Source: Antedon mediterranea (taxonomy: Eukaryota > Animalia > Echinodermata). Taken from it: 64,000 bases of DNA. The notes below the pieces were generated by a model that was not told where the DNA came from, did not search any database, and saw only the letters and a list, made by a program, of their open reading frames with translations. Shown here one piece after another: positions 5,901 to 59,498 of this stretch. How positions within the stretch are numbered: the first letter of the stretch is position 1; the number at the start of each line of letters is the position of its first letter. The DNA lies in the NCBI RefSeq assembly GCF_964355755.1, contig NC_092680.1, positions 15,385,045-15,449,044 of the forward strand. Reading direction: 5' to 3'. The translations under genes were made by a program, and so were the position numbers.

Positions 5901-8900
5901 CAGTATCATGAATATTCTAGAATAAGAGTATGTTTAGATTTAAGAAACCATGTATAATTAATAAGAACAATCAGGAACATTCCAGAAGTACTATTAATAG
6001 AAACTATAAACCAATAGAATAAGAAGTATAAGGAATGATCTAGAAGGTTATGAACATATTGTATATAAGGGGAAGTATGACAATTGTAAGAAGGGAAAAG
6101 GATTTTTTGATTGAAGCAGGTTGGATATTAGTTGTTGGATATTAGAGGTTGGATATTAGATTGTAAAAGTTATTGTGAAGCTGTTGTTTAAAGTGCTTAC
6201 TGGATTGTTGAAAGTTGAAGTTGATTGAAATTAAAGCTTTGTTTTGAGTTATTTTACAACTTTGTGGATTTTGTGTGTATATTTTTATGTCACAAGGGAG
6301 TTCCTAAAGTATTTTCAACCGCTCGGAAACATACGTAAGAGGAGTTCGTGACAATTATCGTAAAAATACATTGACTGTGACGTTTTCATTATATTGTTGA
6401 AATACACACAGGATTATTCTATACGTATATTTTTATTTTTCTACTCCTGTTAGTTCGAGGTGTAGTATGGAGGATCGATTCGACCTAGTGCATAGCACTT
6501 ATGGCAACCCCCATTGTACTTCACCGTTGTCTTTTGTTGTTTATTGTTTAACTGAAAATGGAATAAAATGAATGTAATACCAATAAAAAGGAAGCAGGCT
6601 CTTCCTCCTTCAATGCCTCTGTGACGTAATCGGCTAGGCCAGTCGCTGATTCCAATTTATCCTGGCAAGTTCTTATTTGATGTTGTAGAACTTCTAATTT
6701 TGACGTCATTGAAGATGTCACGTGCTCAGCCATCAAATGTTGGCGCTCTAAAATTAGAGCTTCGAGTTGGGCACATTCATTTGCAATTTGGCGTTTTAGA
6801 TCAGCAGCGTTGCTCTAAACAAAAGCATAAATTTATGAGGGAAAGTAATAATATAATTTTTTTTTAAACCATGTGGTTTAGTTATTAATTTACTTAAACA
6901 TTAGGCCTAATTATAAAAACTGAGGAATTTGATTTGCATTTAATAATGACAGTTAACGAATTGGATTTAAAGTTGATATAAAGTAATGTATCTATTTAAC
7001 CCATCAATATTATTTATTTCAAAAAGAATAGTAAATGCAACAAACCAAGATTATATAACAAAAAAATGTATTTAGGTCAAACTGTACTCATTTTGTGACT
7101 TTATTTTCGTAATTCTTTTTCTTTGTTTTGTGAACAGTTTGGTTGTCTTATTTTGTATACTTATTTCTACTTGGCCATCATAAATCTTAACGACTTTTGT
7201 GACGTGAATATGTATACTTACTTCAACGTTTGAGCATTTTCTTTTTAATGCTGAAATAAATAACTGTATTTCTTCGTTCTTTTTCTTGAGGCTGTCAAGT
7301 TCGTCGGAAAGAACGTCCTTATAGAAAAAAAAAGGAATTATGACTATTACAAAAAAAAAAGTATATTCTGTATAATGTTGTGCATGCATATGACAATCTA
7401 TTCACAATACAAACACAGGAGGCGCTATTATAGTTTTACCAGAAAGTCGGAGGTGTGATATATGTTCTAAATCGTGATATATGACCGGATTTGAACAAAG
7501 GACTCGATGATCATGATTATGCTATAACTCCACTTAAAAAGTCAAACTGGACGCACATTTTGAAGGGCGTTTTTTCATCAACATCATACAAGATTTTTAT
7601 ATTGAACATGTGCATTTTACGACATATTGACTTTCGCTTCCCTTTGCCACGTGTATCATCGGAAAAATCGATATAAATCAATTAATTCACTTAGATAAAT
7701 AAAGCAATATCCTATCGTATTTGTATGGTTACGGTGGTTTAACTATAACAATTTGACTACATGATTTGTTCGTTATATTGAATACTGTATAATTAATAAT
7801 GATACCGATATTTGAATCAACTGTTCACCCATACTCGTGATACTCGTGATAATTCTGCCTATACTATCAAACTAGTTTTTGAAAAAAGTATCATAACGAT
7901 TTATGTTTCTATCTATATTTTTTTTTCTGTCTATGTTTTCACTATGTTTCTATCAATGTTTTCACTATGTTTCTATCAATGTTTTCACATTGTTTCTATC
8001 TATGTTTTCATTATGTTTCTATCTATGTTTTCATTATGTTTCTATCTATGTTTTAACTATGTTTCTATCTATGTTTTAACTATGTTTCTATCAATGTTTT
8101 CACTATGTTTCTATCTATGTTTTAGTATGTTTCTATCTATGTTTTAACTATGTTTCTATCTATGTTTTCACTATGTTTCTATCTATGTTTTCATTATGTT
8201 TCTATCAATGTTTTCACTATGTTTCTATCTATGTTTTCACTATGTTTCTATCAATGTTTTCATTATGTTTCTATCTATGTTTTAACTATGTTTCTATCTA
8301 TGTTTCACTATGTTTCTATCTATGTTTTCACTATGTTTCTATCTATGTTTTAGTATGTTTCTATCTATGTTTTCACTATGTTTCTATCTATGTTTTAGTA
8401 TGTTTCTATCTATGTTTTCACTTTGTTTCTATCTATGTTTTCACTATGTTTCTATCTATGTTTTCACTATGTTTCTATCTATGTTTTCACTATGTTTCTA
8501 TCTATGTTTTCACTATGTTTCTATCTATGTTTTCACTATGTTTCTATCTATGTTTTCACTATGTTTCTATCTATGTTTTCAATAGGTTTCTATCTATGTA
8601 TTCGAGTTGTAAGATAAGAAAGAGCTTGAGTTTTAGGAATAGTTAAAGTTACAATATTTGTTACCCAAAAACAATAGGGTAAAATCCCCATTGCCCAGAA
8701 AATAAATTCACCAGCAGATATGCAAAACCAACTACTGAACAACTTGTGTTTTTGCAGATTTTGCCGAATGTTTTATTTTAATATTTTCAGTGAATTTATG
8801 ATTTTGTTGTTGTGATTCTGTTACATATTGTACATTTTATATCTAACATTTTTGCCTGTACTTGACTTTAAAGTATCAAACATTATAACTTGTTAGATAT

Positions 8901-9575
8901 TGTAATATAGGCCTATTTACATGTTATATTTTATCTTACCCTTTCTCGTCCAAACGTAGTTTTCAGTTCAGCAACCTGATGTCCTTTATGTGTTCCTATT
9001 CGGTCACATAAAAAGCAGATAGGAATCTTGCAATTCTCACAGTAAATTTTAATTTTTTCATCTTCATGATCAGGACATATAAGAGTGCGTTGTTGAGGCG
9101 AATACTTGGCTTCGACAAGACAGTGCTTAGCCAGAACACCACGAAGTGGGTGGCATAATGGTAGGCATGTATCGCAGTATGATACTCGGCATTCCATGCA
9201 TGTTTTCGTGGCTGTGCTAGGCTCCCCATCGCATCCCTGACAAGGTACATTTTTTTCGTGTTCACCGCCTAACTGTCGTGATTCCCTGTACCTCTCAACA
9301 ATATTCTCAAGTAGAAAGTTCTTCTGTAAGCCATTGAGACGTCGATAGTCAAGTGGTACTTCACTGCGACAAGTAGGGCATTGCAAATTCTTTGCCTTTC
9401 GTGGTTTAGCGATCGGAGCCACCAAACGGTCTTCATCTTCACCTCTGGATCGATTTTGAATTTCATCTAACTTTGAATCTTTTAGACACTTTCTACAAAA
9501 GCTATGGGCACATGGTAGTAACACGGGGTCGTCATACAAGTCCATGCAGACACCGCAAGACAATTCTCGTTCCAT
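2938..9575 (-). CDS. TRIM E3 ubiquitin ligase, class C-I type (RING, two B-boxes, coiled coil, COS, FN3, SPRY/B30.2); TRIM9/36/67/MID1-like, about 658 aa
   Basis: Seven phase-compatible GT-AG exons: 9575-8940 (RING CGVC..CAHSFC..CPTC, two B-boxes), 7317-7222 (96 bp), 6814-6581 (234 bp), 5814-5792 (23 bp), 5155-5028, 4685-4404 (FN3), 3515-2938 (SPRY, YWE motif). Sum is 1977 bp = 659 codons. The 96/234/23 bp coiled-coil exon pattern is typical of TRIM genes. Confidence 0.92.
5860..6353 (+). mobile_element. Solo LTR in a TRIM intron
   Basis: 494 bp with TG...CA termini, flanked by an identical 5-bp TSD ATTAT (5855-5859, 6354-6358). Internal TATA-like TATATAAG at about 6063 and ATTAAA at about 6230. 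Confidence 0.75.
7900..8600. repeat. Minisatellite, 23-bp unit ATGTTTTCACTATGTTTCTATCT, about 30 copies, in TRIM intron 1
   Basis: Directly visible tandem array; it produces the spurious MFLSMFSLCFY ORFs. Confidence 0.95.
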
Positions 9576-10526
9576 TGTTCAAGAGTGGTAAATTACTTAT
9601 ACGTATAGGCCTACGGTAAGGTTAAAAGAAGTGAGATTATCAAGCTATAGACAATTAAATTACTTGTAAAGACAAAACTCCACGTTTGCAGGATGGTAAA
9701 ATATTGTTTGCAACAATTGAGAATTAGTTCAAATCACTGTGTTCATTAAATACAGTTATATGTACAGATGTTGTGGATTTTATTGATTGCGCATCGAATG
9801 GTTTTGTCCACGGTAGAGAGTTTCGTGGGAGCATGTCCATCTGCGATTCTGCTAATCATATTATGCATATTATACAGAGGCATATTTAGCTTTCTTTCGG
9901 AATTTGCGACAGGGCACAATTTGTTTTTCAAAATACGTTGCCGTCTATTTTTATAGCAAATATTTGTAGTCAATCTTATATTATTTATGCATTTTCTATA
10001 TTATTGTTCTATAAAAAGGCTACGTAGTGTAGACTATATCCGTATAAATATTGGGACGTGATAGTGATAAAATTCGCTATTGAAAATCCTTGCACCGAAA
10101 TACAATAAAAACATAAACACCTCTTTCATATACAATAAATGAAGATTATTATTATTATTATTATAAGGGAAAGATAATACATTTTGTTTAATGTTGTATA
10201 GAACTATAACCAAAATCGCGTACATTATTGATTGATAATTCAATTCGTCCTTTGTAACCAACTGATCACTGATTTTAACTTTAGTGGTTTGCCTTGAAAA
10301 CTAGTTGATGACAAAAGTACATAAAAAATATGAACAACATACTATTGAGGTCTAGTCTGATGAAATGTATAATCTCATAATATAGTGAATTACATCTGCA
10401 TTAACTGCTGTAGTTGTACAATAATATTGGATACGGCATCCGTATTTCTATTACAGTATTGATAAGTACATTCATTTCCAACAACATACAACAATTTCTT
10501 GAAGGATAATATAACCCGCAGGTTAA

Positions 10527-11033: not shown

Positions 11034-12965
11034 TCAGATTGCCGTGCAACCAAATCCTTCCCAATCAAACGAACAAGATACGTCCGGTATCCATGTGACA
11101 TGGTCATCAGACATTTTACGTCTGTTTCTTAAAGACCTAGTTTCAGGTGCTTGTTTATTATGTTCCACCACTTTGGTTGACCAATACGTGGGTATATTGA
11201 AGCATTGATCAACGATTTCATCAACAACGACTGCTTTTAGGAACTCTGATGGAATCATGCCCTTTCTTTCGACATAAAACGATGGGGAGTTACCGTTGAA
11301 AAACTAGAGGTAGAGAAAATACGATGCATTAGCGTAGTTATTATTCACATTTACACTTCTTCAACCATCAATATGAAACTATATAAAATCGTCTATTATA
11401 ATTTAGAACATTGATTATTTAAAGATGACGTTTATATGCATTGAATTCTTTAAAATAATCGTTTTTCTTAGTTAAAAAAATACCGGAAAATACATACCTT
11501 ATTATGGTCGTGCCAAACCAAGTCATCATCTGCCCACAAATAACAGGCGCTGTTATTGACGCTGTAAGCTGCAACGAGTTTCTTTAAAAATAAAATAGAA
11601 TCGGATTTATGAAACTAAAGTGATCAAATTTGGTAGAATAAAACTAGAAGTATTTATTGCAACAAAGGACAATTTTCGTCAAATTTTAATTATCGGCTAT
11701 AAAATTTAAGGTTCGTCGACTGCTTTAGAATTTTACCTGGCTAAAATCAAATATAATTGTCCCTCCGTCAGTCACATTGGCAATTTGTTCAAATGTCAGA
11801 ATTTCCACAAGATGGCTGGGGTACGTATATACACTAATTGAGTGTGCTATTCCATCATCAACATAGTTTACTGTTCTGCACCGCGTCATCTAAGTAAAAT
11901 GAAACTGTTAATGATAACTTACATCATCGATAGGCTACATACGGTAGCTTACGTAATAAGATAAATAACTCACTAATACTATGTGATGCAATGTAGGCCT
12001 ATCATGATGTGTACACTTCTAGCATGTATAATGAATACAATTCAACGTATAATAAAGAAAGCCCAGAATAACTTAGATTGGTTTGTAATACCGCATTTGC
12101 ATTAAAGGTGAAACATTGTATACATTTAATAATAAGGTAGTAATAGTTGTATAGCGCCATTCCAACAATTATTACTCATATCGCTGTGGACGTAGATGTT
12201 ACACTCTTCAACTTACATGCTTCTTCGCTAAGGGTCACGCCGTGACAGTTGTAGCGCTACCTTACCTGTTATTTGATAGTTGCCGTGTAAGCAAGTACAC
12301 ACCGGGGTAATCAATCCCCTACCGTCTCGAACGATGTACAGATTATTTACAGTGCACACGAGCATTTTTTGTACACTGGACCTACGGTTTATTGTTCTTG
12401 TACGAGTCCTTATATCAAACACTTTTCGTTTTTTTTTATACAATCATAGGACTAATTGTAGGCTTGAAAAGTAAACATTTACAGGGGCTGGGTAAATTAT
12501 TGTATTGTTTTGATGTATATGTTAAATTGGATGCACCACTTCTGTTTGTGCCACCGATGCAAAGGTGTCATTTCCTAATAAATTATTATTATTTTTTTTT
12601 TATTTGTAAAATAGGCAATACTTAGAGGTATACATTATGCCACCAATTATATACCGTCAGCCTACAACAATAACAAGGTTTTACTTACGAAGTGTCTTGA
12701 CATAAGTACAATTGCTGCGACTACTCCAACAACCAGAAACAACACAAATAGGCCTACAGTTATGACAATGTGTTGCCGTTTCAATGAAGCGTTTTTAGTT
12801 AAGATTGGTTCCTAAAATAATAATGAGTTCAAGTTATAGAGTACTGACGATATCGATAGATTTCAGCTATTATACATTTAATTAAAAATATAAAAAAAAC
12901 TCCTTGATTTTTACCTGAGAATCTTCATTTGCCTTCTTTTCTGTTGAAATAGATGTTGGATACAT
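11034..12965 (-). CDS. Type II membrane BRICHOS-domain peptide precursor, copy A (about 226 aa)
   Basis: Five exons joined by phase-0 introns: 12965-12915 (MYPTSISTEKKANEDSQ), 12811-12689 (TM: IVITVGLFVLFLVVGVVAAIVLM), 11889-11737 (ends GGTIIFDFSQ), 11581-11498 (KLVAAYSVNNSACYLW), 11303-11034 (IVDQCFNIPTYW...RNRR KMSDDHVTWIPDVSCSFDWEGFGCTAI). The IFDF / AY / CY / C..PTYW motifs match the BRICHOS pattern. Confidence 0.85.
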
Positions 12966-22700: not shown

Positions 22701-25700
22701 TCACAGTCACCAGTGCAGTTAGGTGGACCCCATCTGTGACGTGGGCACTCTGAATAAATTCAATACAAATTACTAATCGATACAAAAGAAAACAACAAAA
22801 GATGAAAGTTAAACAGTAACGCTTTGTTTACTTCCTATTTTCAAAAGATTTCACAATGCTGTTTGTCGTCGTTTAAAATGACAATCATAGCTTTATGTTA
22901 CATCTTTTCCTTCCAAGGTTACATAATTTACCTCGTACAATTAACTTGATAAACGAGTGCCTACGATCTTCCCGGTTACCATCCTCATACATCTCGTAAA
23001 CCCCAGCATCACTGGTCGCCACAGAGCCAAAGGTAACGCTTTTTTCTGCTCCAATCTTAAATACAGAAGAACCATCTTTCCTCCACGCTAGAGAACTGCT
23101 TAATAAAGTATTGAACGTAATTGTAACATTATCTCCTTCATTTACAGTTACTGTGTTTTTAGAATTTCCAGGCGTTATTAAGGCTGTTTATGCAAAAAAA
23201 GAGTTAAAGCAAATTTATATTTCATTTAAATTAATTAAAGTCAAATAGAATACAAGAACCAACAAGTATATGTAATAATGTACAAATAATGAATGTTTAT
23301 GAGTGTAATGGTACAAATAATGGCACGAGGTGAATGATAAAAGGTTATATTTCAACGAGGCGATGAACCGAGTTGAAATATAACCTTTCATCATTCACCA
23401 AGTGCCATTAATTGTACCATTACACGAATACAAAACATTCATTATTTTTTTTATATAACATCTAAATAAATTCTTGTAATTTGAATCAAAGGTTATACAT
23501 ACTGTATATATAATGATCATCAATTTATTATTATTATTGTGTTTCTGTGAATTAAAAATTTGATTATAGAAGTCATCTTATTGTATATAATCGAGTAAAC
23601 TTTGTTAGTGTAACATATGATGATGATACATGAAACCTCATTGTAAAATGTTGAGAGATTAATAATAATTCACAACAAAAACCCACAAAAAGGGGAAAAA
23701 CACAGAAATGTGATAGGCCTTACCATCTTCTCTTATTTTTGTAGTTTGTACAGCAGTGGTGACGCCATTGTTCACTATCTTGCAATAGTATACTCCCATG
23801 CCAAAGACCTCTGTAACATACCACCTACGATCTGCTCCCGACACGTCCCATGCTATTTCACTAACAGCCTCACCATTTGCTACTGCAAATGATCTACCAT
23901 AACTCAAAGTATAACCAGTAAATGCGGTAGGTATGTAGCATTGATAATTCGTATTAGAGTTACTTTGTGGTCCTAAATTCAATACTGTTATATAATCACC
24001 ATTTCCTAGAAGAAAACATAATAACAACATACTGGGTAAAAAATCCAAATATACAAAAAATGTATTATTTAGTAAAAACTATTTCTGTAAGTAGTAACGT
24101 TGTTGGGTTTGGTTCATTTATTTTTTAGTAGAGGGTTATGTATCGATGAAATCATAAATCGTTGGCTATAGTATACACATTTGATTATATCCTTGCTACT
24201 TGAGTTGTTCCGTACATAACTCCAACATGATAGTAATGTCATGTTGAGATTTTTATTTAATAAAGTTCACCTTAAGTTCGTATGCTACTGTGTCTTGTAA
24301 AGCATTTAATTTATTTTTTGCATTCATTAAATAAAAATAATACTTTTATTTGTCGAGAAGAGATTTTGTTGTTTAAATAAACTTCGTCTTGTTGAATATC
24401 AATATTCAACTTAAACTCTCAGCATTATTGTAACTCATAAACATACACTGTTATCTGCTTATCTTTTGTTAAGTTCCCTCAACTTTATTTCATTTCAAAA
24501 GATAATCATTAATTGATTAATAAATAATCTTATTATATGTATGTATTATATATTTAAATTCATACATTTACATTACATGCAAATTGAAAGAACATTAATT
24601 CTAACTCGCCCGGTGATATACTGAAAATATATTATTTTGAAACGATAAGATGAGCAAATCTGTGAGAATGAGAAAAAGTATGATTTATATACAATTTACA
24701 CAGTTTGCAACACAATTGCGACTATTGATTCGAACCCGGAACCTTCTGCTTAATATGCAGATGTCCTAACCATTAGACCACTGAGCCTTTCATGGTTTAG
24801 TTCAAACCCTGAATTGATCAGCACTATAGTCCCTCACCATCGCACACAAGAGATCAAATTGATACGCCCTCATATAGTTTTAATCATTTTATGATAAAAG
24901 CTTTTAATCTGTATTTTGCCAGTTTCAAATGTATTTCCATTTTATATTACTATGGACAATAAAATAATATCAGTATCAGTATTTTCAGTATTTTATTCAC
25001 GAAGCGGAATCTCTGAAGAGATACGTTTATATATAAACATTAGGTCTACAGGCACAGAATAAATTCTAAACCACTCGGTGAAATATTGAAATTTAATTCA
25101 TTAATTTGAAACGATATCAAAAATAAATAAAATAGAATAATAAAAAACTCAATAACTATTTGTTTGTAGAGTATAGCAATATCAATGCGTTCCGTTAACT
25201 CTTCTTTTTAGTGTTTTCCCCTTTTTTTTATTTCTGTTTATTTGCACTATTTGCATACATTGTTTGTATACTTTTAAAAAATAGTTCATAATACATCCTA
25301 CGCTATTACATGGTACATGGACTAGTGTCAAAAGGAGAAGTTATATATAATTCTCTCGACTACAGACCTCTCAATTTGGAAAAATGAAATATCGTAAAGA
25401 TTTTTAAAGCGTATCCAAACTCATGAGGGCGCTAATACACTTTTGAATATTACATCAGCCCATAGAGGGCGGTATTAAAATTAGAATTAGTGTCTATAAT
25501 GTGGTGCCTTAGGGTCAGGATCGTGACATGGATGACAACGTTTTCAAATTGTGGACATTGTTTACTAGGGCATAAAGACTCGAAAAATCACTGTAGCAAA
25601 AACAAAATAAATATTTTCAAAATGGCGGCAAAAAAGGGTATATATCTTGGTAAACGGTAACCAGTTCATGTTAGTGTCAAAATGCTTGGAACATAGACTT

Positions 25701-29978: not shown

Positions 29979-32900
29979 TTAATTTGAATAATATTCAAAG
30001 TGTTTGTAATCGTCATCCCGGTTGATGTTGTTTTTAGAAATCTCTTTCGCTGATCGTTTATTTAGTGTACATGAAACCAAACCGCTGCCGTAGTTGCTAG
30101 GACTGATACTTAAAGATCGGCATTGTTCAGTCTGCTCACATAAGGTAAGACACGTGAGCAAAGACCTAACAGGCAATGCTGAATGGATATACTCAGACAC
30201 GAAGCTTATGTTGTCAAAGAAATGCATCACTCCCTTTAAGCCTGCAAAAGAAGAAATTATTAGAAGATTATTGTAGTCGTCAACAGGTGTGTTAAAGGTG
30301 CCATGGTAGATGTATCAGCAGTGATCTCAACTTGTATTATAATAGTCAGTAATAGCCATGTATGGCAGTAATTACAATTGTTGAAGAGAAACACTAATAC
30401 ATGTTAATGGTCTTATTAATATGCTTATACAACAACCATAAAGTATCCTATGTAACCATTATACTAATAAACTTACCTGTACACTGTAGTGGTCCTATTG
30501 TACTGGTACCATTTTCCGAAAAATGGCCTGTGTCACCATGTCGTAACTGAATCACCGGTAGGGTAGACATATCTTCAATATATCCATCGTCATATCTCAA
30601 AACCTTATCATTTCTGTTACATTCACACATTTCACTTAAATCGCTACAGTCACCTTTTATAAGAATTAGTAAATAAAATAGTATCACAAAATTGTTATTG
30701 GCGTTTGGGCAAAATGCTTTATGTATTGCTTTAGACGTTCATCGGTAAATGCTGATCTGTGATAATCTTTTGTATAGTAGAATTACTTTGAATAATTTTC
30801 AATTTATGTGATTTTTAGGTAGCGGCTTATACATAGACAGGTGTAACATCAAACTAACTACAGGCCATCTGATAAGAACGGAAAATACAGACGAGTAAAA
30901 TATTATGATGATAATTAATGTCAAACTATAGGTTTACCTCTATATCCACATGCGCAACCATAAAAGCCGATTGGACTTCCCCAGTTATACATTTTCGAAC
31001 CATCACGTGAAATCCAAAAACTGACAGGTACACCGATTGAATTAAAGCACTCATACTGTTAGGAAAAAAATTTACGAATATTCTACATTCAAATAAAATA
31101 GCCCAATGATTATGATACAGTATAGCTGCTACTTAATTAATCGTGATGGAATTTCTGTCTACATTTATATCAAATTTGACGAGCCCATATGGACATGATA
31201 ATGTCATAATTTGGCATATCACTGCCATATTTGAGTACATCACACTTATTTTGGTACATCATACTGTCAAACTAGTTTGTCATGAATACAATGACTATAG
31301 ACAGAAATTGACAATACAGTTGTTAATCTATGTCTCTCTCTCTCTTGGTAGTTCCTCCATTTATCATCAGACGAATCCTAACCCAATTCATAAATACCCA
31401 TACAAATAAAATAAATGTAATTGAGGTGGTGTTCATTCATGTTTTCCAATTTAGGATTTTTGATACAAATTTCTAGACATATCCGTTGTAGTAACTTTCT
31501 CTACATGGTGTGCATAGTACCAGCAGCAGAGAAAAATACAGCACAAAATTGTCACTTATAAATTTAGTTAACCATCTTCTACAACAATTTGATGATGGAA
31601 ATAATTCTATTGGCATATTTATAGACTTTATGAAAGCATTCGACACGATTAATCATGAAATATTAATATCTAAACTACAACACTATGGAATAAGAGGTCA
31701 ACCATTATATTGGTTAACCGACTATTTAAAAGGAGGATTTCAATACGTGGCTGCTGACCAAATTAGTTCTGATAAACTCCCAATCTCATGTGGAGTCCCA
31801 CAAGGATCAGTATTGGGTCCAACCCTGTTTCTGATCTACAAAAATGATATTTCTCATTCTAAAAAATGTTTTTGAATTTAGGCTGTTTGCAGATGATACT
31901 AATTTATTTCATGATTTCTCTGGCAATAATATTGATCTCTCTATAATTAATTATAATTTTCAACATGTCATTGAATGGTGCAATGCAAACAAATTAACTA
32001 TTAACGTTGGTAAAACAAAATTATATTGTATTCTGTAACAGGAATAAAAATGTTTCTACTAACGGTAATATATACGTAAAACATAAACAACTTAATGAAG
32101 CAGAAGAAGTAATGTTTGTTGGTGTTAAGATTGATAAACATTTAATCTGAAATATTCATATTAATGATGTTAAAAACAATATTAGAAAGAAGGCAGGCAT
32201 TTTATTTAAACTAAGATATGTTGTACCCACAAATATATTAATCTTATTATATAAAATGTTTATTCAACCAAGTATCACTTATGGCATAGAAGTTTGGGGT
32301 AGCACGTATAAAACATATTTACAACCTATTTGTGTCATTCAAAAAATGTGTATGCGGTGTATAACCTTTTCTGATTTTAATGCTTCGTCATCTCCGATAT
32401 TTAAGCAACTTAATATTTTAGATGTTCATAAACTATACGAATTATGTGTACTTAATTTTGTTTTTGATTTATATAATAGAAACTCTGCACATCAAATCAG
32501 TTATTATTTTAGTACAGTTGATCATTTACGAACTACTAGATTTAAACAAGGTAAAAACCTATCTATCCCAAAAGCCCGTACTATGGCAGGTCAATTTAGA
32601 ATTTCGTTTACTGGCACAAAATTTTGGAATAATTTATCACTCGACATAAAAAATAATACATCAAAAATTAATTTCGTAAAAAATATAACTGAACTACTAT
32701 TATCGAGATACTGATTAATGCTGGCCCACCTCTTTCTTTTTGTCATTATCGTGTGTTTTTTTTTTACATTATTGTATAATTATATTATCAAAATCGTTTG
32801 CACTGAACAGTATTATATTTGTTAATCAGGTGTAAACCATTGACTAGCGAAAGCTATTTGTTTATACCGTTTTGCCTTTGGTGAATAAAGAATTATGAGA

Positions 32901-38433: not shown

Positions 38434-41063
38434 TTACTGGCATGTACATACTTTCCAATTAAACGAACAAACTACAGTCCCGTTATTTCGCGGATTTTCT
38501 GAAAACCGGATTCCAATGTTTCCATTAAGTTCTGTGGTTTTAATTGACCAGTATGTGGTCATACCGCAACATTGGTCAACGATTTCTTCACTAGCAAGCC
38601 CTGTCAGGTACTCTGGTGATATTATGTCCTGTCGTTCGACATTAAACGATGGAAAGTTACCATTGTACAACTGTAGGCAAATAAAATATTAAATAATTAT
38701 AAATATGATTTTAATGACATAACCATAAAATGTAGGCCTATGCATACAATTAGGAAACAAATCTTGCTTAAACATAATGGTAAAAAAACGCAAAATGCCT
38801 AATATAATAGACTTATAGAAGGAAGTAGCTATATTTATTTGTAGATATATTTTAGCAAACTTAAAATGTTCATTATTTGTACTTCCACCTTTGAATATAC
38901 ACACTACAGGTAATTGTGCTAGTGACAAAAGCACGGCCATATTGTTTGGAAAGAAAACACCGTCACAATCAAATTGTACAGAACAAGCTATTGCACAGCA
39001 TAATAGGTTTACATTACGATATTTATACACATAAATTGTCACTAATATGGTTTTAGGAATGACTTATATTTGCAGATATTTAGGTTTGCTAATCGCATGC
39101 ACATTGTGACGTTAACATTATTGTATCTTATTTTGTATGTTTTGCTTTTTGTTATTTTTCTGGTTTTCACACTTGTAATTTTAACAAATACATACCCAGT
39201 CACGATTATGCCAATTCAAGTTCTCGTCTGCCCACAAATAACAAGCGCTGTTTTGGGCGCTGTAAGCCGCAATGATTTTCTAAATTAATAAACATAAAGA
39301 ATAAAGATAAATAATAAAGAGTCTTAATACTTACAATATTATTGACATACATTATTGAACTAGTATTCTTCTTAATTTTTATTTTATGCTTTTAAACATA
39401 TTTCAAAGATATAGTTTAATGTCTTAAGACTCTTACGTGGTAAAAATCAAATATAAGTGTTCCTCCGTCAGTCACATTTGCTATTTGTTCAAATATCACA
39501 ATCTCTACATGGTGGCTGGGGTACGTATATACATCCATTGAGTGTGAGATCCCATCGTCTATATAATCTACGGTTCCACACCATCCAGTTCCCTAAATTT
39601 ACAACAATTACCATTTGTACATTATAGGTATACAAGTAAAAATAAACAGGGGCATATGAATTGCTTATGTAATGCCAGACATGAGCACACCGTGGCTAAA
39701 TAAAGCTATATTGTTAGTTTTAGTTCATTTACTATATAAAAATAATGGTACACATAATGTCATGAGGTGAAACATGAAATTATATTTCACGAGACGAAGC
39801 CTTAGTGAAAAATAATTTTATATTTACCGAAAAAAATTATTTTTACCACTGCATAAATATAAAACACTCAATTATATTGTTTTATATAAAAAATAAGTAT
39901 ATGGATTCTTTTCTTTGCCATTAAAATAAATAGTACGTACTATTGCACGCCATATGACTCACAATTGAAAATATATAATACTGTATATTACACACTATAT
40001 CATGTCAATATTGGCAGAATAAAGCATTTACTCTGCACTCTTAAAATATTATTAAATAATAAACAAAATACAAGTTTCTGTCTTTAAGGTATAACCTATC
40101 TACTAAAGAGCAAACGAAAGATAAACGTTCTAGAGATGTGCTTTGACAATGATTTATAAGAGGATGACCTAATATAATGAATGAACACATTCAGCCTAAT
40201 CCACGTCTTCTAACAAATTCTTTACATAATTATCTACTTACCATCGTAAGCATTATTGCTGTAACCACGCCACAAACTAGGAAAAACAGCACCAAAGAAA
40301 TAACAATTACCTTCTTTTTCAAAGATGCTTTTTTCTTCACGATTGGTTTCTTCTATAAGTATATAATATAATAATGTATTATTTATTAACTTATTTTTTA
40401 TGTCACCTTAAAAATGTTTAAAAGTGGTACTGATTTTTAATATGAGTAACCGGATAAATAATTAGTAATAAAAATAGTAATAGTATTTTCCTATACTATG
40501 AAGGTTTCGATTTTTATAATTTAAAACAAGAACAATGCTTCACATGTACATAAATGAGATTCAATTTTTATGAATTTCCTATTTATTTTTATGAATTTCC
40601 TATCTTATGACATTACAAGAGATTCTGTAGCATCATTTTTGTTATGCTTCACCGCTGTCAAATGTAAATATTTTATAATAACAATATACATTGTTTTCCC
40701 TGAAATTAACCTTAATATTTAGTCAACGATTTTTCTTTTATTTATCAAAAGCATGGATCTTACAGAAGAAAATAAATTCCAACCACACGGCACTTATTTG
40801 ATCGTTTACAGCACTGTGAAACTACATTTTAATATACTATGGTACGTTCGCTTCGCTCGCGTACCATAGGTCGTGCTCACAGATGGTTCTCGAATACACA
40901 GTAATTTCAGCGTTTTTTTGTATATGTGTTAAACAATACGATTTCTGCAGCCTTCTTTTAAAGAGACAGTTTTAAATGAATACCTATAATCCTATACCTC
41001 AATATTTACTTGAGTTTCGTCTACATTTGTCTTCTTTTCTTTCGTAATTGTTTTTGGAAACAT
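38434..41063 (-). CDS. Type II membrane BRICHOS-domain peptide precursor, copy B (about 217 aa)
   Basis: Exons joined by phase-0 introns: 41063-40998 (MFPKTITKEKK..), 40352-40242 (TM VIVISLVLFFLVCGVVTAIMLTM), 39592-39437 (ends GGTLIFDFYH), 39279-39196 (KIIAAYSAQNSACYLW), 38670-38434 (IVDQCCGMTTYW...NPRNNGTVVCSFNWKVCTCQ). All introns are GT-AG and the frame is open. Confidence 0.86.
40835..40915 (-). mobile_element. Helitron 3'-end fragment (same family as 55754-58786)
   Basis: ATGGTACGTTCGCTTCGCTCGCGTACCAT hairpin followed by CACAGATGGTTCTCGAATAC. Confidence 0.7.
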
Positions 41064-43459: not shown

Positions 43460-44910
43460 GCAAAATAAAGTTATCATAAGCCTACTTTTAGTACAGTATC
43501 TTTTCTTGTAGGCCTACGCGTTTTACTGTACTGGCTATGGCATGTTTAATTTAATTCAACGAACAAACTACGCTGTCTCGTTGTTTTTCTGATTTTTTGA
43601 AAGCCAGATCTCAATGTTTTAATTAAGTTTTATGGTTTTAATTGACCAGTATGCATGCAACATTGGTCAATTCTTCACCATCAAGTCATGTTAGGAATTA
43701 CTATATACTATGTGCTTTCTTTCGAAAGTTTTTAAAAAAACTATTTTAATAAACTCTTAAAATATATTATCCTTTAATCATAATGGCAAAATATCGTATG
43801 CTATTGGTTCCGGACGACTATATGTTTAATACACAGGACAAGTATGTACTTGATAACTTTCGTCACTGGTGACCAATGGCAGACGGTATCTATTAATATG
43901 CTCGATAATAATAACAACTTTATTTAAAAACGGATGCAACACTTGAATCACCATATTGGTGTTTTTCACAAGGCCGTTACTTACTACAAAACTATTTATA
44001 CTATTACACAAGTTATCATTTACAGTACAAAAACAACAACAACAACAACAACAACAACAAAAAAGATTTCATGTAAAAAATATAGAGTTTCAAGTATATT
44101 TTATCTTTGGTCATTTATCATTTTTTTAAATATATGTATATTAGGAGCTGTAATTGCATTTGAGTTTATAGCATTTAAACTATTCCATAGCAACGGTGAA
44201 CCATATATATAGGCCTACATAGTAACGGTTACAGACTCGGGTGCGATATTAAACGATGTAAAACTGTAGGCAAAGTTAAATAATTAATTAAAAATATTAT
44301 TAATATTATTATTATAATGATATGAACATAAGTTGAATAAATAAATTAAGGAATACATCTTTCCTAATAGTAAAAACACCCCAAGAGATCAATTTACGGT
44401 ACACCATGTATTTCTATTATACTATAGACTTATAGAAGGAAGTAGCTAAAGTTATTTTAGCAAACCTTACATTTACGTATTATAATTGTCATCATTTGTA
44501 CTTTAACCTATGAGTATATACATTACAGACTAATGTCCTAGTGACAAAAGCATTGCCAGGCCATTGTTTGGTAAGAAAGAAAGCACCGTCACAATCAAAA
44601 GAATTGTGCTGGGCCAGTTATTACACAGCAAAACTGTTTATAAAAGGTTTACAAAAGAATATTTTTAGACATTAAAATAAGTGTTTGGTTTCAGGGCTAC
44701 TAACGTTTGCAAATATTTAGGTTTTCTATTTGCATGCGCATTGTGACGTCAACAGTTGTATCTTATATTGAATTTTGTATGTCTTTTTTTCTGAAATAAC
44801 AAGCTTCTCAATTCAATTCATTCACATTATTTAGCATGGATCTTAAAGAAGAAATTAAATTCTAAACACACGGCACTTACTTAATCTTTTACGGCACGTG
44901 AAAATACTTT
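43460..44910 (-). pseudogene. BRICHOS-family pseudogene (degraded exon 5, intron 4 and intron 1 remnants)
   Basis: GGTTTTAATTGACCAGTATG, CAACATTGGTCAA, TAGAAGGAAGTAGCT, AGTGACAAAAGCA and AGCATGGATCTTA..ACACGGCACTTA match copy B; contains stops and indels. Confidence 0.78.
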
Positions 44911-51075: not shown

Positions 51076-52023
51076 TTAGTCATTAACAGAAATTTTGAAA
51101 CGGTAATTCTTCATACATTCTTGTGACTTGAAGATTTTCGGACTTTTTTTATACTTGTCATAAGTCAATATGTTAATTGTAGTGTTATTTGCTACAGCAA
51201 CCATACATGGGTTAATAATACATAACTGATTTGGCACAGTAATTCTATCTTCTTTATTATCAAATCGGTTGATAAAATGTCCATCACTTTTGAATAATTG
51301 TAGTTTGTGGTTACTTGCTATGATAATGTTATCATCTTCATCAACTGCAATTGCATGTGGCCACCTCACCATACCATCTTCATGCCCGTTTTCAACGAGT
51401 GCTTTCAGTTCTTTGTTCGTTTTATCATACATTAATACTTGGTGGTTTCCTTCATCTGTCACAAGTACTTTCCCAGTTTTCGTAAGTGAAACATCCGAGT
51501 ATCCAGAATAATGGGAACATTTCGTCTGTGTTCCTATTATCTCAAGGTGCGCACCACTATCAATATCAAACATATACACACATGACATGCTCAACTCTGC
51601 TACATATATAACATTAGCAGATTCGTCTAAGTGAATACCACATGGTTTTGTTAAAACACCTCTGCCAATTGATTTGATCACATAACCATTCATATTACAT
51701 ACTTGAATACATGCATTTCCACAATCACTGAGTGCTATGTTGCCATTTTTCATTGTATACATCCTGTTTACTTCCATACCTTTTGATAGTGCAATTTTGC
51801 CAATACATTTTCCTGAATATTTGTACTTGTAAATTTCATGTGTTTTGAATGATACCAGCAAGCAATCATCATTATACTTAACTATACCAGTAGGAATGCT
51901 CCTTAGTTTGATAGTAAGAGGTTTGAATGTAATATTTGCAACTCCTCTACGAATACCTCCTTCTTTTCCAATGTTCAGTTTCTCATCTATGTCTCCAAGA
52001 AGATATAAATTGTGGCTATCCAT
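51076..52023 (-). CDS. NHL-repeat beta-propeller protein (TRIM2/3/56/71-like C-terminal domain) with no visible N-terminal RBCC, about 315 aa
   Basis: Repeats PTGIV, PCGIHLD, PHAIAVDEDDNIII, VLVTDEGNHQVLMYD, PNQLCI. The single long exon is preceded by the acceptor TTACAG at about 52028-52033. Confidence 0.8.
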   Translation of the reverse strand: MDSHNLYLLGDIDEKLNIGKEGGIRRGVANITFKPLTIKLRSIPTGIVKYNDDCLLVSFKTHEIYKYKYSGKCIGKIALSKGMEVNRMYTMKNGNIALSDCGNACIQVCNMNGYVIKSIGRGVLTKPCGIHLDESANVIYVAELSMSCVYMFDIDSGAHLEIIGTQTKCSHYSGYSDVSLTKTGKVLVTDEGNHQVLMYDKTNKELKALVENGHEDGMVRWPHAIAVDEDDNIIIASNHKLQLFKSDGHFINRFDNKEDRITVPNQLCIINPCMVAVANNTTINILTYDKYKKSPKIFKSQECMKNYRFKISVND

Positions 52024-52874
52024 AATCCTGTAATAGTAACACATTATGTTACACAGCAGAAAAGTATTTGAATATTCATTTGTGATACAGTAGTAGGTTT
52101 TAAGCCATACCGAAAGCAGAAATACTAACTGAAATGAACGTTTCATATTGTTGATATTCATTTCAAATTGGAAAATCATCAATAAATAATAATATTGTTG
52201 ATAAATAAATTTAGTTTTAACTATTACATTGGAATAGAATCCACTTTAAATAAGCTACACTGTCAGATACTAATACTCAACCATAAGTTACCTTGATTTG
52301 TTGTACCAATTGGAGATTTAATAATACATGCTGATCAATTGTTGTAACAACGCAAACAGTAAGGGAGTTTTCAAATTGTCTGTGGTATTTACCAATGGAC
52401 TCACGGAATGTAGACAGCACTCTAAATGAATTGTATTAAAATGCAAAACAGCCTTCAAGGAAGATCACCTGATTCCGCAGCTATCACCAGATATATTCTA
52501 ACAGACTATTGCAAGGAAGTCACGAGTTTAACAAATAACTTTATGTAATATCTGCCAGTAGATAATGGTATAACGTTAATATGTGTATTTAAATGCACCA
52601 GGAAAAAGACAAGCAGGTTTATCGTTTGTTTTACTGTATAGACTAGTCTATAGGTTCTACACTTAAATCGACATAATATCAGAAAAAAGATAGATATATG
52701 CATACATTGTTTACAGATGATTTATAGATAATATTGTCAAGTCTTGTTAAGTGTTAAGAAGGTTATGCACATTAAAACTTTAATTGTTTGTCTTCTAATT
52801 TTTGTAATTTCAAAGTTTATTTATTGTAATTGTGATTATCTTATACTGTCATTATTGTCAACACTATTTTCTTA

Positions 52875-53395
52875 TTTTTAATTTACTGGCATTACATAAT
52901 TTCCAATGAAACGTGGACTGTAGAGTGCCCTCATAAATGATTTTTCTTTATTAGATTATGAACTATGATTATGACGAGGTCTTCGTGTACTCTGGCGTAC
53001 CAGAAATCTTCTGTTTGGTGGTCGATTAAATGTCACTAATAGATTAATTAAGCACCTGTGCGATTCCTCAATACGTGATATTGATATTGTCTTTGATCGA
53101 CTGTAATATTGTTAAATCTAAAAAACGTTTAAAGCTATTTTGTCATATTTATATATTTATATTGTTTATCAGAACTTAAATTGATTTGAGAAAAAACCCC
53201 AAATATTCTATAAGTCTTGGTTTTCGCGGATTTGCAAAGACAAGTCAAATCCCAATGTTACAATTACGTTCCATTGTTTTAATTGACCAGTTATGTGACG
53301 AACGATTTCTTCACTAGCAAGTTATGTTATGTATTCTGGCGATATTATGTGTTTTCTTTCGACATTAAACGATGGAAAGATACCGTTGAACACAG
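52875..53395 (-). pseudogene. BRICHOS-family terminal exon relic, split by an insertion
   Basis: TTCGACATTAAACGATGGAAAG, GATTTCTTCACTAGCAAG and GTTTTAATTGACCAGT at 53270-53390; TTTAATTTACTGGCAT..TTCCAAT (peptide end, reads GTLQSTFHWKLC) at 52877-52930. Confidence 0.75.
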
Positions 53396-54969: not shown

Positions 54970-57900
54970 TTACTGGCATGTACATACTTTCCAATTAAAT
55001 GAGCAAACTACAGTCCCGTTGTCTCGCGTATTTTCTGAAAACCGGATTCCAATGTTTCCATTAAGTTCTGTGGTTTTAATTGACCAGTATGTAGTCATAC
55101 CGCAACATTGGTCAACAATTTCTTCACTAGCAAGCCCTGTCAGGTACTCTGGTGATATTATGTCCTGTCGTTCGACATTAAACGATGGAAAGTTACCATT
55201 GTACAACTGTAGGCAAATAAAATATTAAATAATTATAAATATGATTGTAATGAATGAAATAAAAATTAAATACAATTCTTGGTTATTGGTAAAAAAAATA
55301 TCAAAACTTGGAAACAGGTTTTTCGCCACACCGGGTATACCTAATATGCCACTTATAGAAGGAAGTAGTTAAGGTTGACATATTTTAGCAAACCTTACAT
55401 TTAATTATAATGTTCATTATTCGTACTTCCACCTTTGAATATACACACCACAGTCAATTGTGCTAGTGACAAAAGCACGGCCATATTGTTTGGAAAGAAA
55501 ACACCGTCACAATCAAATTGTACAGGTCCTGTTGTAAACAAATACATACCCAGTCATGGTTATACCAATCCAAGTCCTCGTCTGCCCACAAATAACAAGC
55601 GCTGTTATTGGCACTGTAAGCCGCAATGATTTTCTAAATGAATAAAAATACTAAAAATAATCTGAATACTTGCAATAATACGGTGGTAATTTAATGAACC
55701 ATTGTAATTAATTTTTATTTTAGGCCTTTAAAAATAGTTCAAATTGATGTATACTAGATGGCACGCTCGCTTCGCTCGCGTACCATCTAGGTCGTGCCCA
55801 CAGATGGTTCTCGAATACACAGTATTTCCAGCGAGAAAAAAATGGAGATTTCAAATGTATACGTACCGCAGGACTATAATACATTGTCGTTTACAGAAAC
55901 GAATAAATATACACAATGATTTATGTAGTCAACCAAAATTAGCACCCTGGGAATTACTTCCGAGAGAGAAACAAAATGAGTCAAATTTTTTTATTTGGAC
56001 TCATTTAAACAAACCCAATTTGTGTTTTGTATGTAACATTAAGGGTTGAGGGATGGGGGAAGAAGATAGGTACAAAGAGGAAACATTTTAAAATATATTC
56101 TTATCCACTCAGTAACGAAATATTGTTTTTAATGTTTTATAGGCCTATAAATAATATACCACTAAATACAGTAAAACATTTACGATTTAATACGGTACTT
56201 TGTTAAAACTCTCACTGTCATAGTCGATTGAAATAGTAAAGTACATGTAACGATACACCACTACGACGTTTATATATTTTTAAATTATTAATTAATACAA
56301 ACGTTGAGAAGCAACTGTCAGTAATAACGTTTATTTATTTGTATATTATATGTTTATAATCTAACAGTAGGGCCTACCCACACTCACAGTAATAAAGTTT
56401 ATTTGTATATATTTTTATATTACATCTAACAGTACCAACACTCACAGTAAGAAATTTGCGATTAAAATTGGGATCAAAAGTGGTTAATACCTTAACAGTA
56501 TTGTACAGCATTGCAATACTATTTATGTTTATTCTCCAAGGGGGCCCATAAATCTAAATCTATACCTCTATGGTTAAACCAAATAATGTGGAATGTTTAT
56601 TTGTATATTATATGTTTATAATCTAACAGTAGGGCCTACCCACACTCACAGTAATAAAGTTTATTTGTATATATTTTTATATTACATCTAACAGTACCAA
56701 CACTCACAGTAAGAAATTTGCGATTCAAATTGCGATCAAAAGTGGTTAATACCTTAACAGTATTGTACAGCATTGCAATACTATTTATGTTCATTCTCCA
56801 AGGGGGCCCATAAATCTAAATCTATACCTGTATGGTTAAACCAAATAATTTGGAATGTTCCATTCATCACAAATCAATACATTTGTAAAAACGTATATTA
56901 AATGTATCAAAATAGTATTTTTTAAAGAAAATCGGCCTGTCTTCAACATTATGATGGTGTACTCTAGCTGTTCAACCGGTTTTCAGCCATTAAAAACAAT
57001 TATCGTAGGAGGAGATAGGAAAATGCGAAGCCTCCTCGCATTTTTGTGGCGGGTATTTTTCAAGACGGACATCCATTATACAGTGTATACCACGGTTGGA
57101 AAACACCCCTATTTGGGGCAAATCTTGGAACCTAAATTCGTTTTAACCGTCAATAACTTATTATCTAACTTAATTTAATTAGTAAACAGGGTTACATCAG
57201 GTGGTTAAAATCAGTACCGAAAGTACGAACCAACTTTATATACCATCGAGTAAAAATTATAGAAGTAAGGCGCGATTTACCGAATTTTGCCCTTACGTAA
57301 ATTTATATATAGACTAGATGGTACGCTCGCTTCGCTCGCGTACCATCTAGGTCGTGCCCACAGATGGTTCTCGAATACATAATAATTTCAGCGTTAAAAA
57401 ACTGGCGATTTCAAATGTACGTACCGCAGGACAATAATACATGTCGTTTACAGGAACGAATAAATAGACACTGTGATTTATGTACTGAACTAAAATTACC
57501 ACCCTGGGAATTACTTCCGAAAGAGAAACTTGTCACAAAATGAGACCAATTGTTTAAGTCAAATTTAAACAAACTTAATTTGTGTTTTGTATGTAACGTT
57601 AGGGTTGAGGGATGGGAAAGAGGATGGGTGCAAAGAAGAACAATTTTTAAATATATTCTTTATCCATGTAGTAACGAAATATTAATTGTTTACATGTTTT
57701 ACAAATAATATACCACTAAACACAGTAAAACATTGCGATGTAATACTTTGTTGAAACTATCACCGTCCTAGTCGATTGAAATAGTATAGTACATGTAACG
57801 ATACATCACTACGACGTGTATAATATGTTTATATAATGTAAAACAATTTGTGAAAACCACCCCTATTCGTGGCAAATCATAAATTCGATTTAATCGTCAA

Positions 57901-59498
57901 TAAATATTAAATTATCTAACTCAACTTAATTAGTAGGCCTAATGGTTTTCAATTGTTTCTTAGAGCCAATTCATACTTAAGTTGGTTCCTAACCCTACCC
58001 ACCAAAGTTGTTCTGCGTTTAGAGCATGTGATGCACCGTAGGCCTATCCTCTACTGGCTTTACAACGCTACTCATGCCAGTGAGGGAAGGGTGATGATGT
58101 CACGTGGGTGGTTTAACTGCAATAATAAAGATTTGTACATAATATACGGCGACTGAAAACGCTAGCTCATTATCCGTTAAAAAAAAACTATATCCAACCT
58201 CCGCAGGACAGATTGAAAAAAAAATGGATCGAATTTCTGTTATGAGTATACACATGGACCTCCATGGTATACAGTACTTGCCTTTACGACGCCTGAGGGA
58301 ATAGACACTTGTGGAACAGAGATTGGAATGTTCCATTCATTTCAAATCAATACATTTGCATAAACGTATATTAAATCTATCAAAATAGTATTTTTTAAAG
58401 AAAATCGGCCTGTCTTCAACATTATGATACTGTACTCGAGCTGTTCAACCGGTTTTCAGCTATTAAAAACAATTATCGTAGGAGGAGATAGGAAAATGCG
58501 AAGCCTCCTCGAATTTTTGTGGCGGGTATTTTTCAAGATGGACATCCATTAGACAGTGTATACCACGATCGGAAAACACCCCTATTTGGGGCAAATCGTT
58601 GAACCTAAATTCGTTTTAATCGTCAATAACTAATTATCGAACTCAATTTAATTAGTAAACAGGGTTACATCAGGCGGTTAAAATCAGTACCGAAAGTACC
58701 AACCAACTTTATATACCATCGAGTAAACATTCTAGAAATAACGCGCGATTTACCGAATTTTGCCCTTACGTAAATTTATATATAGATTATACTCATATTA
58801 TAGTCTTACGTTGTAAAAATCAAATATAAGTGTTCCTCCGTCAGTCACATTTTCTATTTGTTCAAATATCACAATCTGTACATGGTGGCTGGGGTACGAA
58901 TATACATCCATTGAGTGCCTTATCCCATCATCTACGACTCCGCACCTAAAGACCCTCTAAATAAAATGATAGTTGCTAATTAATTAGCTTGGATAATAAA
59001 ACGAAATAAAATAAAATATTATTTTTGTTGTTGTTTAGTTCTGTTTAGCTTTTAAAAAACCCTACAGTACATATAGAATTTTACTTAATGTACTAAGGTA
59101 AGGTTGTGTGTCTTTTTTTCACGGTCTACAAACAATTTATTTGTGATATAGGCCTACCATTGTTATACCTCTATGTATATACTTACACGTTCTCGGGTAA
59201 GAACGATTGCTGCAACCACACCGCATATTATGATCAACACCAACGGAATACAGATACCAATTATTTTATTCTTTCGAGAAGTTCGTTTGGTCACGATTAG
59301 TTTCTGAAATGACAATCAAATTCTTAGCCTATCGTTTGCAATACCAACCTAAACTTTACCTACTTGCAGGAAACATACAAACTTCAGATTTCGATTTTAA
59401 AACTACGTGGTTAAGTTAATTAGTAAACGTACCTCAATGTTAACTTGAGTTTCGCTTTCATTTTTCTTCTTTTCGTTCACAATCGTTTTCGGAAACAT
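54970..59498 (-). CDS. Type II membrane BRICHOS-domain peptide precursor, copy C (about 216 aa)
   Basis: Exons joined by phase-0 introns: 59498-59433 (MFPKTIVNEKKK..), 59303-59187 (TM IIGICIPLVLIIICGVVAAIVL), 58956-58810 (ends GGTLIFDFYN), 55633-55550 (KIIAAYSANNSACYLW), 55206-54970 (..DQCCGMTTYW..NTRDNGTVVCSFNWKVCTCQ). Confidence 0.86.
55754..58786 (-). mobile_element. Two non-autonomous Helitrons head-to-tail (55754-57313 and 57314-58786) in intron 3 of BRICHOS copy C
   Basis: On the minus strand each unit starts TCTATATATAAAT and ends with a GCGAGCGAAGCGAGC-containing hairpin plus CTAG. The insertion is at A|T with no TSD, and the junction is CTAG|TC. Confidence 0.85.
56330..56860. repeat. 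Tandem duplication of about 265 bp inside the Helitron
   Basis: TTTATTTGTATATTATATGTTTATAATCTAACAGTAGGGCC...GGTTAAACCAAATAAT occurs twice in succession. Confidence 0.9.

Follow-up and report, generated by a model that had tools for sequence, protein, structure and literature searches.

Spare cysteines and a predicted C-terminal hairpin in BRICHOS-like proteins of the crinoid Antedon mediterranea

Copies B and C, two of three neighbouring BRICHOS-like genes of Antedon mediterranea, encode proteins with seven cysteines after the transmembrane (TM) helix. Since the pairs 124-173 in the BRICHOS domain and 207-216 in the C-terminal hairpin (B numbering) are expected, three cysteines are spare: 64, 174 and 214. 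The reading we favour, with a probability of about 0.58, is that the hairpin of these proteins is an uncleaved lid, and that the spare cysteines have separate origins and are not bonded to one another. An initial annotation of the locus had instead joined Cys174 to Cys214, in a redox-releasable tether between the BRICHOS domain and its client peptide.

Genes, fold and relatives

The window analysed is a 64-kb stretch of A. mediterranea DNA, AT-rich animal DNA with introns. Its three neighbouring paralogues, A, B and C, lie on the minus strand with five exons each in the gene models (Table 1), and all 12 modelled introns have GT-AG ends and are in phase 0. The joined frames of 226, 217 and 216 amino acids (A, B and C, respectively) match A. 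mediterranea database proteins of equal length that were found via the last exon. The segment from which the tether was proposed, 38434-38580 (-), covers the 3' portion of exon 5 (the last) in copy B, running from DQCC through the stop codon. For this copy, contigs of run X5 join all four introns at the modelled sites, and run X1, which is DNA-like, lacks these joints; X5 is taken as RNA by guess, no run being recorded as RNA. The X5 contig over exon 5 of B has two differences, both outside the coding part, and both B cysteine codons are thus present in a second sample. A further X5 joint with three differing letters appears to match the end of exon 3 of copy C. The splice joints rule out copy B as an artefact of assembly or annotation.

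Table 1. Coordinates of the BRICHOS-like genes in the window and of features within them
Feature	Position	Strand	Details or basis
Copy A (P0003, 226 aa)	11034..12965	-	Exons 12965-12915, 12811-12689, 11889-11737, 11581-11498, 11303-11034
Copy A RNRR motif	11129-11118	-	
Copy B (P0002; XP_071964722.1; 217 aa), exon 5, with helix 2, the last strand, the linker, the C-terminal hairpin and the stop codon	38434..38670	-	Gene model, AlphaFold model
Copy B hairpin ladder C207-x-F209-x4-C214-x-C216	38440..38469	-	Predicted pairs 207/216 and 209/214
Copy B NPRNNGT, aligned with RNKR of D/E	38476..38496	-	No convertase motif; N-G-T sequon
Copy B Cys173 (second conserved BRICHOS Cys) and Cys174	38566..38571	-	Cys174 is B/C-specific (F in A/E, S in D)
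Copy B exon 4: first conserved BRICHOS Cys124 (39243-39241), strand beta4	39196..39279	-	Gene model, alignment, X5 joint
Copy B exon 3: linker Cys64 (39580-39578), first strands, conserved Asp108 (39448-39446)	39437..39592	-	Gene model, alignment, X5 joint
Copy B exon 2: signal-anchor TM helix	40242..40352	-	Gene model; model helix 33-59; X5 joint
Copy B exon 1: start codon, cytosolic tail	40998..41063	-	Gene model; splice joint 40352/40998 in run X5
Decayed exon-5 copy, B/C type	43463..43725	-	Two adjacent Cys codons kept; frameshifts and stops
Second decayed exon-5 copy	53222..53392	-	Cys codons deleted
Copy C (P0001, 216 aa)	54970..59498	-	Exons 59498-59433, 59303-59187, 58956-58810, 55633-55550, 55206-54970

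Other features of the window include the exons of a TRIM-type gene at 2938-9578 (-), with RING and B-box at 8931-9578, FN3 at 4207-4689 and SPRY at 2938-3552, and an array of tandem repeats, about 700 bp long (7901-8603), within it. Between A and B, weak matches to Ig (E 0.002) and to PAN (E 0.0004) at 22885-23187 and 29979-30314 (-) are possibly exons of a further gene. A reverse-transcriptase fragment at 31495-32714 (+), with RVT_1 at 31495-31872 followed by a second frame, is likely a decayed LINE. An NHL-repeat open frame of 389 codons lies between B and C (51076-52245, -).

A, B and C are likely to be type II membrane BRICHOS-like proteins and are filed in the BRICHOS superfamily. The N-terminal TM helix spans residues 33-59 in B and 21-58 in A, as judged from sequence and AlphaFold models. 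The Pfam BRICHOS model PF04089 matches weakly in 6/6 proteins of an aligned set made up of A, B, C, two further paralogues (D and E) and a Holothuria protein; the best E value is 0.0015, and the scores of A, B and C (15.5-19.2 bits) are under the curated cut-off of 25. Full conservation in BRICHOS domains is described in PMC2751770 as limited to an Asp and two Cys. In the aligned set, Asp108, Cys124 and Cys173 are each invariant in all six proteins. The AlphaFold model of B, built on the six-sequence alignment with a mean pLDDT of 68, has strands at 63-71, 74-83, 88-93, 103-108, 113-118, 123-128, 148-156 and 177-186, a helix at 167-173 and a terminal hairpin. Asp108 terminates strand 103-108, in keeping with the conserved BRICHOS Asp that closes beta2, and the two cysteines lie in strand 123-128 (beta4) and at the end of helix 167-173 (helix 2), again as BRICHOS domains have them. 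The order of elements agrees with the Bri2-type topology of PMC9714404 and, together with the invariant residues, supports the BRICHOS-like fold that the initial annotation had recognised. In reported BRICHOS structures a helix lies on either side of the sheet, and face A is turned towards helix 1; clients bind face A, and the conserved disulfide fixes helix 2 to the sheet (PMC10182729, PMC11168071). The corresponding disulfide, 124-173, is expected to form in B and C.

The closest structural match of the B model (VIA) is the proSP-C BRICHOS domain 2yad (Z 5.8, rmsd 3.0, 68/77 residues), a middling Z with which LolA/LolB rows are almost tied. In the Atlas, B and E adjoin BRICHOS clusters (features 0.92 and 0.94), and ITM2-named BRICHOS clusters stand at 0.89-0.92. 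A Foldseek search gave no match at E <= 0.001, with ependymin-related proteins ranked first, and sequence searches of the PDB returned nothing significant (0 matches, then two at E 1.4 and 2.6).

The putative client peptide forms two strands in both AlphaFold models, 206-209 and 214-216 in B and 212-217 and 220-225 in A, with the same register and with a confidence that is modest in B (blocks 69-74) and low in A (46-52); this agrees, at that modest confidence, with its earlier description as a C-terminal hairpin. From the models, the tails appear to form a C-x-C-x4-C-x-C ladder of two rungs, pairing 207 with 216 and 209 with 214. Two tail cysteines are described as a likely pair in PMC2751770, and the outer rung, 207-216, would be bonded in B and C. 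Because position 209 faces 214 across the hairpin, it is the natural neighbour of Cys214.

The two further Antedon paralogues, D (P0004) and E (P0005), are encoded outside the window, and the Holothuria protein is a distant relative with a tail that lacks cysteine. Word-based protein searches and a full HMMER search of 1.84 billion representatives found only the five Antedon paralogues and this Holothuria protein; the word-based search is low in sensitivity, one run having missed P0004 and P0005. Of the 202 pattern matches from a metagenome scan, none was confirmed as a relative.

Probable separate origins of the cysteines

The contrast on which the tether was built is exact: A has DQCF and CSFDWEGFGC, and B and C have DQCC and CSFNWKVCTC. 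At the BRICHOS and peptide positions, respectively, A has the Phe codons TTC (11201-11199) and TTT (11054-11052), B has the Cys codons TGC (38568-38566) and TGT (38448-38446), and C has TGC (55104-55102) and TGT (54984-54982). The linker cysteine directly after the TM helix is likewise kept in all three, as A62, B64 and C66; its resemblance to Bri2, noted previously, holds in that the position matches Bri2 Cys89, and is a likeness of position only. However, B and C are identical at 230/237 nucleotides of exon 5 (97%), so that the F/F versus C/C difference amounts to one independent contrast. Nor was it confirmed that the switch exceeds chance, as 58 of the 155 ungapped ectodomain columns show the same split of A from B and C. 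Two of those 58 columns involve cysteine, and these are exactly the two named positions, 174 and 214.

Between B and C (38434-41063 versus 54970-59498), nucleotide identity is 69% in exon 2 and climbs to 97% in exon 5, a rise that points either to a recent conversion or to strong constraint on the 3' end. Their third introns are very different, that of C (55634-58809) being about 3.2 kb with internal duplications and that of B 157 bp. Decayed copies at 43463-44793 and 53222-53392 (-) comprise two copies of exon 5 and one remnant of intron 4. The adjacent Cys codons of the copy at 43463 imply that this state predates the B/C split or was shared by conversion.

The five paralogues present four states of one hairpin ladder. 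At positions 174/207/209/214/216, E has F/C/C/C/C, the complete C-x-C-x4-C-x-C ladder, D has S/C/C/C/V, B and C have C/C/F/C/C, and A has F/C/F/F/C. The inner rung, 209/214, is therefore C/C in D and E, F/C in B and C and F/F in A; the Cys64 position is Cys in A, B and C and not in D or E. The initial annotation had held that homologues carrying only one of the two cysteines would speak against their pairing, and both additional paralogues (2/2) are of this kind. D and E have the peptide cysteine without the BRICHOS cysteine, yet in them the peptide cysteine has another partner, at 209.

Both inner branches of the tree, which comprises the five Antedon proteins, are starred; the Holothuria protein was omitted because its long branch is unplaceable. 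By parsimony, position 174 changes once, on the stem of B and C, position 214 changes once, on the end branch of A, and positions 64 and 209 change once each, on the branch between A, B and C and the pair D and E. These counts are independent of the root; they come from five paralogues of one species, and the alignment of the D and E tails to B depends on a short stretch. Since 174 and 214 change on separate branches, a paired gain is not supported, nor is the claim that each part gained one cysteine, which had a single contrast behind it. The two events looked like one switch because only three copies were in view.

D has an odd number of peptide cysteines and no spare cysteine elsewhere. An unpartnered cysteine is thus tolerated among the Antedon BRICHOS paralogues. 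In D, the Ser at the Cys174 position completes an N-C-S sequon (P0004 residues 177-179), a hint that the Cys174 site may be at the surface.

Proposed fate of the hairpin and the spare cysteines

Convertase motifs follow the rule K/R-Xn-R, with n = 0, 2, 4 or 6. A motif of the RxKR/RxRR type precedes the tail in 4/6 proteins (A, D, E and Holothuria). After the BRICHOS domain of B and C there is no dibasic, RxxR or K/R-Xn-R motif (n = 0, 2, 4, 6), and an N-G-T sequon for N-glycosylation occupies the place aligned to the convertase motif of the paralogues. The tail of B and C is thus likely to remain part of the chain, judging from its sequence, and release of a client peptide from these two proteins, as first envisaged, is not expected. 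Lone Arg residues do occur in the B/C linker, and a cut at one such Arg, or by a different protease, may take place. Copy C also has RERR immediately after the TM helix (59195-59187 and 58956-58954, -), absent from B; as a furin-type motif, this could shed the entire ectodomain. The net charge of the tail is +1 in B and C, -4 in A, 0 in D and -2 in E. A cationic antimicrobial peptide is ruled out by these neutral or acidic tails, with a net charge of at most +1 in 5/5.

In the favoured reading, Cys214 would be the remaining half of the inner rung, its partner at 209 being Phe in A, B and C; in A, position 214 would have become Phe too. Cys174, located where helix 2 ends, would have arisen independently on the stem of B and C, and the hairpin would sit non-covalently in the face-A groove, as Bri23 does in Bri2, forming a permanent lid flanked by a glycan. 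Cys64 would be a dimer link resembling Bri2 Cys89, and the other spare cysteines would most likely enter intermolecular bonds or be shielded thiols. Odd cysteines do form bonds between molecules in related proteins: BRI2 homodimerises through Cys89 (PMC4578630), Bri2 BRICHOS dimers are joined by cysteines of separate molecules (PMC11168071), GKN2 joins TFF1 via Cys38 (PMC2632736), and a similar role is reported for the single cysteine of polaricin (PMC10608444). Free thiols, on the other hand, are described as uncommon in secreted proteins (PMC7177788), which counts against unbonded cysteines at 174 and 214.

The alternative that survives best, although we rate it as doubtful, is a permanent intramolecular 174-214 disulfide, in which a new Cys174 captured the orphan Cys214 and made a structural lock on the uncleaved lid, with no release switch. 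It gives the simplest count, as a Cys64 dimer (presumed also in A) and the two expected pairs leave just 174 and 214. Cys174 is found only in the lineage that has Phe209 and Cys214, its sister lineage A lacks a Cys at 214, and B and C also lack the convertase motif; however, all of this is a single event, and D shows that an orphan can persist without a partner. The geometry is similarly divided. Judging by its Phe in A and E, position 174 may be a packed site, and Cys174, next to a cysteine bonded to the second residue of beta4, would lie close to the sheet's rim, possibly within reach of an overhanging hairpin. But published descriptions of BRICHOS structures put helix 2 and the client groove on opposite sides of the sheet (PMC10182729, PMC11168071). 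A complex prediction for B residues 60-187 with 188-217 scored 0.02, was run without an alignment and carries no weight either way. A literature search, outside which most subscription papers lay, yielded neither a precedent for a disulfide between a BRICHOS domain and its own peptide nor any paper on BRICHOS proteins from crinoids.

The states of A and of B/C may represent two routes to the removal of one orphan cysteine. A tentative scenario of this type is that B and C sealed a formerly cleavable chaperone-plus-client precursor, by losing the furin site, gaining a glycan and capturing Cys214 with Cys174, whilst A swapped the same orphan for Phe; this would be the first case of a BRICHOS domain bonded covalently to its own hairpin. 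A genuine 174-214 bond would amount to a natural cross-link that fixes the native position of a client on the BRICHOS domain, a position backed by predicted models and binding assays in PMC9714404 and PMC11168071, and would offer a ready locked-closed control for assays of anti-amyloid chaperones.

The releasable tether, in which the B/C tail is cut, held by the 174-214 disulfide and freed on reduction, is improbable. It accounts for the cysteine count equally well, paralogues A, D and E do carry cleavage motifs, and single Arg residues are present in the B/C linker. Such a tether, however, needs a cut, and so it is disfavoured by the absence of the usual site in B and C, where the sequon stands at the equivalent place; moreover, the covariation underlying it fails on the five-protein tree, and there is no evidence for a reducing trigger. 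Least probable of all is a bond from Cys64, not Cys174, to Cys214, with Cys174 free or intermolecular: Cys64 shares its branch of the tree with the loss of Cys209, and it opens the first strand of the extended sheet, where the hairpin is expected to lie, but A retains Cys62 with no Cys at 214, the matching BRI2 position is reported to form homodimers (PMC4578630; the correspondence is by position only), and more orphan cysteines are left.

Comparison with known BRICHOS systems

The paralogues make up a previously undescribed five-member crinoid expansion of BRICHOS precursors, in one branch of which the processing motif has been lost. They are most readily compared with ITM2B/BRI2, with which they share the type II TM helix, the extended BRICHOS sheet with its conserved Asp and two Cys, and a C-terminal hairpin closed by a Cys pair, as in Bri23. 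A, B and C also share the linker cysteine near the start of the first strand, which is the homodimer cysteine, Cys89, in BRI2 (PMC4578630). Unlike BRI2, B and C have a sequon in place of the convertase site, an extra cysteine after the second BRICHOS cysteine and a third hairpin cysteine.

The polychaete precursors of BRICHOS antimicrobial peptides (arenicin, alvinellacin, capitellacin, HfBRI and polaricin) similarly place a short Cys-closed hairpin with nested pairing after the BRICHOS domain and occur as many variable paralogues (PMC10745061). Those peptides are described as cationic (PMC10745061), whereas the crinoid tails are not, and B and C lack the dibasic site.

Two other systems are informative for the extra cysteines. 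The proSP-C BRICHOS domain (2yad) resembles B and C in that it has a lineage-specific addition, an extra disulfide, which joins the helix-1 loop to face A inside the domain (PMC10182729); in contrast to B, its client is a TM segment and there is no C-terminal hairpin. Gastrokine 2 (TFIZ1) has, like B and C, an odd number of cysteines, and its spare cysteine bonds outside the domain, to TFF1 (PMC2632736). It differs from B and C in being secreted and in having as its partner a separate protein rather than its own tail.
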